A program made the position numbers and the translations under genes. DNA of 53,209 nt from Planctomycetia bacterium (GTDB lineage: Bacteria > Planctomycetota > Planctomycetia > Pirellulales > PALSA-1355): positions 1 through 53,209 of the forward strand of contig JBGQHN010000003.1 in assembly GCA_041497975.1 (NCBI GenBank), in the 5' to 3' direction. This document shows positions 30,383 to 32,529 of this stretch, piece by piece (the stretch's first letter is position 1; every line of letters begins with the position of its first letter). Below the pieces are notes generated by a model that had not been told where the DNA came from, did not search any database, and was given only the letters and a program-made list of their open reading frames with translations.

Positions 30383-30946
30383 ATGCTCGCCAAAGACATC
30401 AAGAACGGCACGGTCGTCAACTACAACGACGCGCCGTGCATCATCGAAACGATCAGCGTGCAAAGCCCTTCGGCGCGGGGAGCGGCGACCATCTACAAGT
30501 ATCGGGCCCGCAACCTGGTCACCAAGGCGAAAATCGACATCGTGCTGCGCGGCGGTGAATCGCTGGACGAAGCCAATTTCGAGCGCCGGCCCATCAAATT
30601 CATGTACGCCGACGCCTCGCACATGCACTTTCTCGATTCCCAGGACTACAACCAGTATTCCCTGCCACTGGCGGACATCGAATACGAGTCCAAATTCTTG
30701 ACCGAAAACCTGGAAGGCGTGCAAGCGCTCATCTACAACGATGAGTGCGTCGGACTGCAGCTCCCGGTCGTCGTGGAACTGAAAGTCACGCAATGCGATC
30801 CGGGCGTAAAGGGCAATTCGGCCACGGGACGAACCAAGCCGGCCACGTTGCAGACGGGACTCATCGTGCACGTGCCCGAGTACCTGGCCCAGGGTGAGAT
30901 CGTCAAAGTCGACACGCGCAGCGGCGAGTTTCTGTCGCGAGCGTGA
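30383..30946 (+). CDS. efpL: Elongation factor P-like protein (EfpL/YeiP subfamily)
   Basis: EF-P C-terminal GNSATGRTKPATLQTG..VPEYL..VKVDTR; loop SPSARGAAT rather than canonical PGKG. Confidence 0.85.
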   Translation: MLAKDIKNGTVVNYNDAPCIIETISVQSPSARGAATIYKYRARNLVTKAKIDIVLRGGESLDEANFERRPIKFMYADASHMHFLDSQDYNQYSLPLADIEYESKFLTENLEGVQALIYNDECVGLQLPVVVELKVTQCDPGVKGNSATGRTKPATLQTGLIVHVPEYLAQGEIVKVDTRSGEFLSRA

Positions 30947-30963
30947 AGCGCTCCTGCTCAGCA
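30940..30963 (+). repeat. 24-bp direct repeat, left copy
   Basis: AGCGTGAAGCGCTCCTGCTCAGCA identical to 31632-31655; includes the efpL TGA. Confidence 0.95.
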
Positions 30964-30967
30964 TTCG

Positions 30968-30995
30968 GGGTGGCACCGACAACTTGTTGTCGGTG
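30968..30995 (+). repeat. REP-like palindrome (left)
   Basis: GGGTGG foot then CACCGACAAC-tt-GTTGTCGGTG. Confidence 0.85.
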
Positions 30996-31077
30996 TTGCG
31001 AAGCAATGGGAGGGATTTCAAGTGGGCTCGCAATGGCATAAGTTGCCGCGATCCCAGCGGACGCGTACCGTGATCAC

Positions 31078-31587
31078 ATGGCGAAACGGAGAATCTACGA
31101 CCAGCAGCGACGCGCGTATTTTGTCACGTATTCGTGCTATCGACGGCGGCGGTTACTCGACGACGACCGTGCAAAACGGATGGTGCTAGGCACCCTGAAC
31201 GCGCAATTGCGCCGCTTGGCTGGAAGGTGTGTAGGGTTCGTTGTCATGCCCAACCATGTGCATGCCATCGTCTGGTTTTCTGAGGAAGGCCAGTCGAGCG
31301 AGTTCATGAAACAATGGAAGAGAACCAGCAGCCTGCGGATTCGACAACTTTTCACCAACACCTTGACCGCGTACGCGGACCATGTCGCGCACGCGCCTGT
31401 TTGGCAAGCCAAGTACTACGTGTTCAACATCTACAGCCGGCGCAAGATGGAGGAAAAGCTGGCCTACATGCACCAAAATCCGGTTCGGGCGGGACTCGTA
31501 CGCAATGCTTGCGAATGGCGCTTTAGTTCGGCGCGTCATTATGAATTGAACAAGTCCGTGGGCGTTAAGGTCGGCTGGCTCGAATAA
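31078..31587 (+). CDS. REP-associated tyrosine transposase (RAYT, Y1 HUH family)
   Basis: YFVTYSC, VVMPNHVH (HUH), VWQ, YMHQNPVRAGL (catalytic Tyr), WRFSS. Confidence 0.92.
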   Translation: MAKRRIYDQQRRAYFVTYSCYRRRRLLDDDRAKRMVLGTLNAQLRRLAGRCVGFVVMPNHVHAIVWFSEEGQSSEFMKQWKRTSSLRIRQLFTNTLTAYADHVAHAPVWQAKYYVFNIYSRRKMEEKLAYMHQNPVRAGLVRNACEWRFSSARHYELNKSVGVKVGWLE

Positions 31588-31602
31588 CCTCTTGTGCCTG
31601 CG

Positions 31603-31631
31603 GCACCCCGACAAAAATGTCGGGGCCACCC
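31603..31631 (-). repeat. REP-like palindrome (right, inverted)
   Basis: Reverse complement GGGTGG-CCCCGACA-tttt-TGTCGGGG. Confidence 0.85.
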
Positions 31632-31655
31632 AGCGTGAAGCGCTCCTGCTCAGCA
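31632..31655 (+). repeat. 24-bp direct repeat, right copy
   Basis: Identical to 30940-30963. Confidence 0.95.
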
Positions 31656-31656
31656 G

Positions 31657-32457
31657 TCAAGACCGTGCGTCGGGCCGTTCGAGCTGGGCGTAGCCGGCGT
31701 CGCCCGCGGGGATCAACCGCCGCGGCTGACCACTCCACCACACCATGACGCGCCCGACCAGCCGCTCGTCGGTAGCCAGCTCGACCACGGCGTCGGCAAT
31801 TTCGTCCAGCGACGTCAGCACCTCTGGCACACCTTGCTCGCGGCGCTGTTGGGGCGTCAGGGCATCGAAATACTCCTTGACCTCCGGTGTCGCCACCCAG
31901 TCGGGAACCAGGCAGTTCACTCTGATCTTCTCGCGGTCGGCCAGCGGGGCAAGCATGGTCGCAAGTCGCAGCACGCCGGCCTTGGCCACGTCGTAGCCTG
32001 GTGAGTTCGAGGGCTTGTGGCCGTGTCCCACGGCCGAGGTCGAGCCGATGTTGACGATCACCCCGCCCCCGCGCCGCCGCATGGCGTCGATCGCGTGCCA
32101 GGTGGCGTACATCGTTCCCAGCAGGTCGACCTGCACGGCATCGAACCAGCGCGCCAGCAGCCCTTGGCCCGGATAGGGCGCCGACGCGTTGTTCACCAGC
32201 ACGTCGACGCCGCCGTAGGTTTCTTCGGCAAACGCGACGAGCGCGCGGACATCGCCCTCCACCGCCACATCCGCGCGCATAAACACGGCGCGACCGGCGA
32301 CCTCGCCGATCAGCCGGACCGTCTCTCGACCGCCCGGCTCGTCGATGTCGCACACGACGACCGCCGCGCCGTCGCGAGCCATGCGCCGCGCGATCGCGCG
32401 GCCCGAACCGGGGCCACCCGCTCCGGTGACAATCGCCACTTTGCCGGCTAGCTGCAT
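31657..32457 (-). CDS. SDR family oxidoreductase
   Basis: TGAGGPGSG, LVNNA, IGS, YDVAK (YxxxK), IRVNCLVP. Confidence 0.9.
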   Translation of the reverse strand: MQLAGKVAIVTGAGGPGSGRAIARRMARDGAAVVVCDIDEPGGRETVRLIGEVAGRAVFMRADVAVEGDVRALVAFAEETYGGVDVLVNNASAPYPGQGLLARWFDAVQVDLLGTMYATWHAIDAMRRRGGGVIVNIGSTSAVGHGHKPSNSPGYDVAKAGVLRLATMLAPLADREKIRVNCLVPDWVATPEVKEYFDALTPQQRREQGVPEVLTSLDEIADAVVELATDERLVGRVMVWWSGQPRRLIPAGDAGYAQLERPDARS

Positions 32458-32529
32458 AGGCCGCACCGGTAGACGCCGCTCACGGCACAGACGGCTGGGG
32501 ACGCCCCATTTGCGTGGACCGATTCGCGG

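Follow-up and report, generated by a model that had tools for sequence, protein, structure and literature searches.

REP-associated tyrosine transposases (RAYTs, or TnpAREP) are Y1 HUH enzymes whose genes lie between inverted REP hairpins, an arrangement known as a REPtron (E. coli TnpArep, PDB 4ER8; Nunvar 2010; Ton-Hoang 2012; Corneloup 2021). They are usually single-copy and vertically inherited (PMC5581495), no evidence of tnpAREP mobility has been reported (PMC8266576; PMC2817692), and the described models are mostly proteobacterial. TnpAREP enzymes cut at CT and CA, guided by the foot tetranucleotide (PMC8266576). The IS200/IS605 insertion sequences, such as IS608 and ISDra2, share the Y1 HUH fold family, subterminal hairpins, small size and short non-autonomous derivatives, but carry both end hairpins on one strand and make no target duplication (PMC2817692). 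For BIME amplification, a model has been proposed in which TnpAREP nicks, a host polymerase extends the 3'-OH, and a second cut on the new strand is followed by transfer onto the first phosphotyrosine; the same work reports cutting at a distance from the REP (Ton-Hoang et al. 2012, Figure 7B; PMC3333891). This model would duplicate whatever lies between two cuts of variable spacing, but it was proposed for adding REP units in tandem, not for inserting a RAYT unit into unique DNA with duplication of host sequence, and it has not been shown in vivo. An analogy for nick-primed synthesis with template switching is a eukaryotic virus (2009) whose insertion, driven by an HUH nickase of a different class with a helicase domain, leaves a variable partial duplication of the target.

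Here we describe a RAYT unit in a member of the Planctomycetota, within a 53,209-nucleotide stretch (the window; contig JBGQHN010000003.1 of assembly GCA_041497975.1), that is flanked by an exact 24-bp duplication. The features of the locus, in window coordinates, are as follows.

30383..30946, plus strand: EF-P family gene (EfpL-like), whose stop codon (TGA, 30944-30946) and last 4 coding bases lie inside the left repeat
30940..30963, no strand: left copy of the 24-bp target duplication
30964..30967, plus strand: four letters (TTCG) between the left repeat and the GGGTGG foot; CG is probably the element's own C-N end, whereas TT is unaccounted for and is absent from the empty allele
30968..31015, plus strand: left end, a REP hairpin (foot GGGTGG 30968-30973; stem 30974-30995, with arms 30974-30983 and 30986-30995), then a small second hairpin and an AGGGAGG-type box
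31078..31587, plus strand: intact RAYT gene (169 aa, HUH motif HVH, catalytic Tyr in YMHQNPV)
31588..31631, minus strand: right end, the same REP layout on the other strand (stem 31606-31625, foot CCACCC 31626-31631)
31632..31655, no strand: right copy of the 24-bp target duplication, whose first two letters (AG) could equally be the element's own end
31657..32466, minus strand: short-chain dehydrogenase/reductase (SDR) gene, convergent with the EF-P gene, with its stop at 31657-31659, one base after the right repeat

The observation of a REP-RAYT-REP unit between perfect 24-bp repeats, made in the original prediction, is confirmed. The two copies of the 24-mer are the only ones in the 4.49-Mb genome, even with up to 3 mismatches allowed and by BLAST, and none of 100 shuffles gave two matches. 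Both hairpins fold better than shuffled sequence (z -4.2 and -3.65), whereas the target stretch has no significant fold (z 0.2 and -0.45), and we therefore dropped the idea that a hairpin or terminator was the target. Two details required correction. A C two bases outside GGGTGG is present at 19 of the 21 ends found in this genome, so the element proper is probably 30966-31633 and not 30964-31631, which leaves TT as extra letters on the left and makes the duplication 22-24 bp; homology of other copies to this one begins at 30965-30968, with loose ends. In addition, the neighbour that had been called efpL matches Pfam EFP_N, EFP and Elong-fact-P_C and passes the EF-P subfamily model, but its best NCBIfam match, EfpL, scores 198.5 bits, below the cut-off of 216, and efpL is thus a likely name only. 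The convergent gene matches Pfam adh_short and NCBIfam SDR models.

The protein is a RAYT by the curated family model (NCBIfam NF047646, equivalog, 107 bits against a cut-off of 80, residues 5-150) and matches Pfam Y1_Tnp (E 2e-10), whereas it falls below the cut-off of the IS200 model (NF033573, 33.3 bits against 55). Its best solved relative is E. coli TnpArep 4ER8, with HVH aligned to HMH and YMHQNPV to YIYINPV, the catalytic residues of these enzymes, although their catalytic role was not tested here. As in REPtrons, the hairpins are inverted and carry a conserved G-T-R-G foot, which is GGGTGG here and GGGTGG or GGGTAG in homologous loci, where the same layout recurs with co-varying stems. 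The REPs are dispersed singly and in pairs: we found 21 foot-plus-stem matches in this 78%-complete genome, including at least 7 short left-end/right-end pairs of 162-287 bp, some keeping the last bases of the RAYT gene and resembling REPINs or MITE-like REP doublets, and 92 matches in the same-genus species G004, against 0 for the reversed control pattern. Usually there is one copy per genome in the order, and close homologues are patchy, occurring in 47 of 401 genomes. The locus does not fit the picture of a single-copy, immobile, vertically inherited gene, since the genome holds two full-length copies, one of them broken, and the unit is present or absent among co-occurring strains; this picture describes behaviour, however, and is not a defining property of the protein family. 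It departs from IS200/IS605 elements in its inverted end hairpins and its 24-bp duplication.

Failure of sequence data to support both repeat copies had been named in advance as grounds for rejection, but independent Logan contigs from four sediment metagenome runs (X1 to X4) bridge both junctions. Contigs of X2 and X3 span 30433-30994 and a contig of X1 spans 30900-30994, while contigs of X2 and X3 span 31432-31998 and 31432-32200 without a difference. Lack of a single-copy empty site would likewise have counted against the reading, and such a site exists. In X4 (depth 8.9) and X1 (depth 3.5) a contig joins 30946 to 31642 with two other letters between, giving one slightly variant copy of the target in a strain that differs at 3+7 positions in the flanks. 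No empty-allele contig was listed in X2 and X3, from which nothing follows, as contigs show presence and not absence. Three same-genus species (G005, G002 and G004) also have the EF-P-like and SDR genes convergent and adjacent with no RAYT between them, although their intergenic DNA is not alignable at 80-85% identity and so cannot show a single 24-mer. An exact search for the 24-mer in JGI metagenome contigs gave 0 hits, and a 20-mer shared by the filled and empty alleles gave 3 hits there, all in unrelated contexts, with no conspecific DNA in that collection. A scan of genome contigs with the protein returned only 2 loci, with relatives in Pirellulales/Planctomycetaceae.

The duplication is not confined to this locus. 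A second, decayed full-length copy in the same genome, on contig C80, is flanked in the same geometry by a duplication of about 182 bp (182 and 180 nt, 89% alike, abutting both ends) of DNA otherwise unique in the genome, and two same-genus relatives, G006 and G001, hold it as a single copy; a comparison of 50-nt flanks by exact words did not detect this duplication. Among 65 homologous RAYT loci in other Planctomycetota, two more have this layout, in genomes G180 (23 nt) and G640 (82 nt), with exact repeats unique in their genomes, but relatives of G180 and G640 are too distant to give empty sites. In the three cases with identical repeats the RAYT frame is open, whereas in C80 the repeats have diverged and the gene is broken, as expected if the repeat dates from the insertion. 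In all four cases the left target copy ends in C-N (CA, CG, CT and CC), the dinucleotide type that RAYTs are reported to cut, although this is a post hoc count on four cases with a chance of about 0.004-0.008 by our own estimate. The right-hand junctions show no common cut-site rule, and a rule of insertion at CG with a 2-bp duplication fits only 2 of 9 paired copies and was dropped.

Most loci, however, give no support: only 4 of 67 RAYT loci examined show the layout, although eleven of these had a flank shorter than 900 nt and short old repeats would escape the E<=0.001 filter. Close relatives of this very element, in genomes G032 (two copies) and G253, show no flanking repeat. Of the 7 short pairs tested in this genome, five have none within 500 nt, and an eighth pair, on contig C143, showed none by eye; the two on contig C33 are best read as an ordinary tandem duplication on a short repeat. 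A 26-nt flanking repeat at locus L069 proved to be the inside of a tandem REP-pair array and not target DNA, and the same holds, as judged by the presence of REP motifs and by eye, for the long repeats at loci L058, L059, L061, L062, L065, L075, L082, L096, L099, L104, L124 and L125.

The original interpretation, that the whole REP-RAYT-REP unit recently inserted by a route that leaves a long duplication, is supported by these data, with independent support from the three further cases. The specific routes then offered, staggered nicking or circle integration at an att-like site, were not tested here, but a repeat length varying from 23 to 182 nt argues against a fixed-stagger cut and against a fixed att site. 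We propose that the 664-668-bp REPtron-type unit, each hairpin having a GTGG/GTAG-type foot, entered the short gap between the EF-P-like and SDR genes as a whole, recently and in one lineage of a Pirellulales-like planctomycete living in sediment, copying 22-24 bp of target so that both neighbouring genes stayed intact. In this view, the duplication is a recurrent signature of whole-unit insertion in this RAYT family and not an accident. RAYT would cut single-stranded target DNA after a C-N dinucleotide and join that 3'-OH to the 5' end of the element strand, held as a phosphotyrosine, forming the left junction. The other junction would be completed by host DNA synthesis, either displacement synthesis primed from a second nick or gap filling between two uncoupled joins on opposite strands, and either way the stretch between the two entry points would be copied twice, with a length that varies from event to event. 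Short non-autonomous REP-pair derivatives lack the target duplication seen around full-length units, and move or arise without it. Our data show that the insertion is real and polymorphic, that the duplicated DNA is single-copy host DNA and that the layout recurs; that RAYT acts at the target, and every step of this route, is inferred, as no enzyme activity, circle junction or raw read was examined, and cleavage and rejoining of REP DNA are supported only indirectly, by the C before the foot and the C-N ends. We give this reading a probability of roughly 0.55.

Among the alternatives, the least unlikely is that host repair made the duplications and RAYT did not act at the target, either because a double-stranded copy of the unit was captured in a staggered double-strand break whose overhangs were filled in, or because a replicating strand switched template onto the unit and back again upstream. 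The extra letters at the junctions (TT or TTCG here, 2-5 nt in C80 and G180, and 178 nt between the left repeat and the left foot in G640) look like filler or captured DNA, the variable repeat length would fit, and the right repeat here starts with AGCG, four letters that also follow the right foot at 3 other ends in this genome and at both G032 copies and could be microhomology. Yet all four events involve the complete unit, cut within a few letters of both REP feet, which random breakage and capture would not respect; the left target copy ends in C-N each time; and no microhomology is visible at the G180 and G640 right junctions. Recombination is less likely still, whether by integration of a circle carrying the unit plus a piece of flank into the homologous empty site, by unequal exchange between two insertions a short distance apart, or by tandem duplication of target plus unit followed by loss of one unit. 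Single-crossover integration by homology gives exactly this geometry, a tandem target-unit-target-unit array exists on C33, and TnpAREP, said to cut at a distance (PMC3333891), could take flank DNA along. However, 23-24 bp is at or below the usual minimum for homologous exchange, and each route needs an earlier insertion at the same site, itself unexplained. No form with two units or with the target deleted was listed at this locus, a weak argument since contigs drop rare variants, and both repeat copies are identical yet differ from the empty allele in the same way, which fits copying in place.

That the filled site is ancestral, with the RAYT an ordinary vertically inherited gene and the empty allele a deletion between the repeats, appears very unlikely. 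Direct repeats around an inverted-repeat-ended segment do favour slippage deletion, but the empty allele carries a variant of the 24-mer with two other letters in place of three, which deletion between identical repeats would not give, all three same-genus species with the two genes adjacent lack the unit, the homologues are patchily distributed, and the origin of the repeats would be left unexplained. An assembly artefact is a remote possibility, raised by the fragmented metagenome-assembled genome (489 contigs), since separate contigs from several runs carry each junction, the C80 repeats are only 89% alike, which an artefact would not produce, and the same layout occurs in two other assemblies.

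How REPs and their transposases spread has been an open question since RAYTs were described, and the dissemination mechanism is stated to be unknown. We found no report of this insertion signature for RAYTs or IS200/IS605 elements in the papers searched, which did not cover subscription journals or Supplementary Figure S7 of PMC3333891, on units that took up tnpAREP, which may bear on this claim. It is tempting to speculate, although we consider it doubtful at present, that RAYT units are not frozen and can transpose whole by a mode not described for Y1 HUH enzymes, in which each strand's 5' REP end is joined on its own to a target 3'-OH, the two entry points are not coupled, and repair synthesis leaves a target duplication of 23-182 bp that lets the unit land inside gene ends without breaking the genes. 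The locus offers a natural filled-versus-empty pair, an intact enzyme gene, defined ends and a repeatable junction signature seen in four independent insertions, and thus concrete substrates for cleavage and strand-transfer assays and a prediction of variable-length target duplication with the left join after C-N. If the signature holds, it would add a target-duplicating mode to single-strand HUH transposition, and it would also give a simple way to find young RAYT insertions in genomes.

Within the window, the 24-mer is found exactly twice, at 30940-30963 and 31632-31655, and none of 100 dinucleotide-preserving shuffles gave two matches. The whole 4.49-Mb assembly (489 contigs, 78% complete) contains no third copy even with three mismatches allowed, as was also seen by BLAST. 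The two copies enclose 668 bp, and the locus is organized as follows:

30383-30946, EF-P family gene, whose stop codon is contained in the left copy of the repeat
30940-30963, left copy of the 24-mer
Next to it, four letters, TTCG
30968-30973, left hairpin foot, GGGTGG
30974-30983 and 30986-30995, arms of the 10-bp stem of the left hairpin, followed by a small second hairpin
31078-31587, open frame of 169 aa
31606-31625, stem of the right hairpin, part of the mirror image of the same end
31626-31631, right hairpin foot, CCACCC
31632-31655, right copy of the 24-mer, ending one base before the stop of the next gene
31657-32466, short-chain dehydrogenase (SDR) gene, convergent with the EF-P family gene

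Both end hairpins fold much better than shuffled sequence (z -4.2 and -3.65), whereas the duplicated stretch itself has no notable fold. The EF-P gene, named efpL in the original prediction, scores best against the EfpL model but falls below its cut-off. The observation of a transposase unit between inverted hairpins, flanked by an exact 24-bp duplication, is confirmed.

Support for both repeat copies had been set out in advance as a condition the insertion must satisfy, and we examined it by aligning Logan contigs of four sediment-metagenome runs (X1 to X4) to 30400-32200. At the left junction, a 562-nt contig in both X2 and X3 covers 30433-30994 with 10 differences, all within the EF-P gene at 30593-30784, and a 95-nt contig in X1 covers 30900-30994 with none. 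At the right junction, contigs cover 31432-31998 (X2) and 31432-32200 (X3) without a difference. One of these runs may be the source of the assembly, but the contigs were built independently of it. The clustering of differences at 30593-30784 in X2 and X3, with none from 30785 to 30994 or across the right-hand contigs, looks like a recombination tract between strains.

An empty site, likewise named beforehand as a requirement, was also found. X4 contains a 744-nt contig at depth 8.9 that runs 30778-30946, then two other letters, then 31642-32200, with 3 and 7 further differences, and X1 contains a contig with the same joint at depth 3.5. This is an empty site with one slightly variant copy of the target, in a close but distinct strain, and X1 contains both alleles. 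The two copies of the 24-mer in the filled allele are identical to each other and both differ from the empty allele in the same way, which speaks for copying in place and against the empty allele being a deletion between the two repeats. In three other species of the genus (genomes G005, G002 and G004), the intergenic DNA is too diverged to show the 24-mer, but the two genes are convergent and adjacent, with an unaligned stretch of 45-136 nt between them and no RAYT.

The protein passes the NCBIfam equivalog model for REP-associated tyrosine transposases (107 bits against a cut-off of 80) and fails the IS200/IS605 model (33 bits against a cut-off of 55). Its best solved relative is E. coli TnpArep (4ER8), with the HUH and tyrosine motifs aligned. 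The ends behave as REPs. The pattern of foot plus stem occurs 21 times in this incomplete genome, and at least seven pairs of 162-287 bp consist of a left-type and a right-type end (two on contig C33, two on C107 and one each on C190, C375 and C143), while several single ends lie at contig ends. One of the contig ends, C422:1-46, carries a left end 100% identical over 46 nt to the one in the window but with a different flank, and may be a third, recent copy that the assembly could not resolve. In homologous loci across the order the stems differ but stay paired, and the foot stays GGGTGG or GGGTAG, the classic GTAG-type tag. So this is a RAYT with cognate REPs, a REPtron, and not an IS200.

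Close homologues (E<=1e-35) occur in 47 of 401 genomes of the order, mostly once per genome, and at E<=1e-40 they occur in 14 of 401 genomes sampled across the phylum. Two related loci place relatives in Pirellulales/Planctomycetaceae. In the only same-genus homologue, 53% identical (locus L022, contig C140 of genome G009), the REP after the gene is in the same orientation as the one before it, not inverted. G004 has 92 matches to the hairpin pattern (GGGTGGC-N-CCGACA), mostly of the left-end type and mostly single, against 0 for the control pattern, and no close RAYT (E<=1e-30) was found there with this query; this is either a REP population without its enzyme or one served by a diverged enzyme. 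A second RAYT paralogue, 33% identical, is present in the genome under study (C119:7602-8081 and flanks) with its own REP family, having the foot GGGTGC and a different stem. A similar REP sits in the EF-P/SDR spacer of G004 (locus L011) and downstream of the EF-P gene in genome G019 (locus L019), and this gene end may therefore be a recurrent REP landing place.

Whether homologous units are also flanked by duplications had been proposed as a check, and the duplication is not a one-off. A comparison limited to 50-nt flanks suggested that only this copy had a flanking repeat, but a wider comparison showed otherwise. The genome's second full-length copy, on contig C80 with feet at 1245 and 1906, is 85% identical in DNA to this one and its RAYT frame is broken. 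It is flanked by 1061-1242 and 1909-2088, the left copy ending 2 nt before the left foot and the right copy beginning 2 nt after the right foot. These flanking copies are 89% alike and occur nowhere else in the genome. In genomes G006 and G001 the same neighbouring genes, an alpha/beta hydrolase and an acyltransferase, are adjacent with a single copy of this stretch and no unit. The right copy contains about the last 110 nt of the acyltransferase frame, and the duplication therefore kept that gene whole.

We then compared 900 nt on each side of the RAYT gene in 65 homologous loci, 28 from the order, 17 from the phylum and 20 more from the order; L068 and L079 were dropped for lack of flank, and eleven loci had one flank shorter than 900 nt. 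Most loci have either no direct repeat or repeats that are REP-pair arrays. In many, including L069 (G371), L062 (G057), L065 (G239), L082 (G240) and L096 (G697), the RAYT gene is flanked on both sides by whole REP pairs in direct orientation or by tandem arrays of them. Two loci have the same layout with unique DNA. In genome G180 (L126), a 23-nt exact repeat lies at 1367-1389 and 2093-2115, the left copy 4 nt before the left foot and the right copy beginning 5 nt after the right foot, and it is unique in that genome. In genome G640 (L106, contig C172), an 82-nt exact repeat lies at 315-396 and 1235-1316 and is again unique in that genome. Its right copy lies 5 nt after the right foot, whereas its left copy is separated from the left foot by 178 nt of purine-rich, essentially non-repeated DNA (397-574) of unknown origin, which may be captured donor flank. 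The repeat covers the 3' coding end of the upstream gene, whose orthologue in genome G497 ends three codons later. In total, 4 of 67 loci show the layout; in the three with identical repeats the RAYT frame is open, and in the one with diverged repeats it is broken.

The short pairs of this genome gave a different picture. Of the seven pairs tested, five have no flanking repeat within 500 nt, and an eighth pair, on C143, was only read by eye and showed none. The two on C33 (19848-20330) stand in tandem, each preceded by the same stretch of about 50-56 nt made of GGAGGCC-type heptads. This target-unit-target-unit layout looks like a BIME-style tandem amplification and can be explained by slippage on a short GAGGCG-type repeat.

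The original prediction, that the whole unit inserted recently by a mechanism leaving a long duplication, is supported and widened by these further cases. The repeat lengths of 23, 24, 82 and about 182 nt argue against a fixed stagger like that of DDE transposases, and also against a fixed att site. In all four cases the left target copy ends in C-N (CA, CG, CT and CC), although this count is post hoc and rests on four cases, and the right-hand junctions show no such rule. TnpAREP enzymes cut after CT or CA, chosen by the foot tetranucleotide (PMC8266576), and a C also stands two bases before the foot at 19 of 21 ends in this genome.

We therefore favor a model where RAYT cuts single-stranded target DNA after a C-N and joins that 3'-OH to the 5' end of the element strand that it holds. 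The other junction would be finished by DNA synthesis, either displacement synthesis from a second nick followed by strand transfer, as in the Figure 7B model for BIME amplification (PMC3333891), or gap filling between two uncoupled joins on opposite strands. Either way, the stretch between the two entry points would be copied twice. The insertion, its empty allele and the recurrence of the layout are what our data show, while every step of this route is inferred, none having been demonstrated here, and the mechanism is left undecided. The few extra letters at the junctions, and the 178 nt in G640, could be donor flank taken along by cutting at a distance, which has been reported in vitro (PMC3333891). 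An analogy is adeno-associated virus, which integrates by its HUH protein Rep with partial duplication of the target.

Other explanations were considered. Capture by host repair, or template switching without RAYT at the target, explains the filler letters and the variable length, but it does not explain why four events all respect both REP ends. Recombination, whether through a circle carrying flank DNA, unequal exchange, or tandem duplication plus loss, gives the right geometry, yet each of these routes needs a prior insertion at the same site, and 23-24 bp is very short for homologous exchange. Deletion of an ancestral unit is contradicted by the variant empty allele and by the empty sites in other species, and an assembly artefact is excluded by the independent contigs, by the diverged C80 repeats and by the other assemblies.

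Previous work has found no evidence of tnpAREP mobility and regards the dissemination mechanism as unknown (PMC8266576), and RAYTs are described as behaving like housekeeping genes (PMC5581495). RAYTs at novel chromosomal sites have been noted, with duplication or horizontal acquisition suggested, but we saw no junction data in that account (PMC3686654). IS200/IS605 elements are said not to make larger target duplications. Our literature searches, which did not extend to supplements or subscription journals, found no report of target duplications around RAYT units. What we describe is a true RAYT/REP system, but one that is mobile as a unit and has a variable long target duplication.
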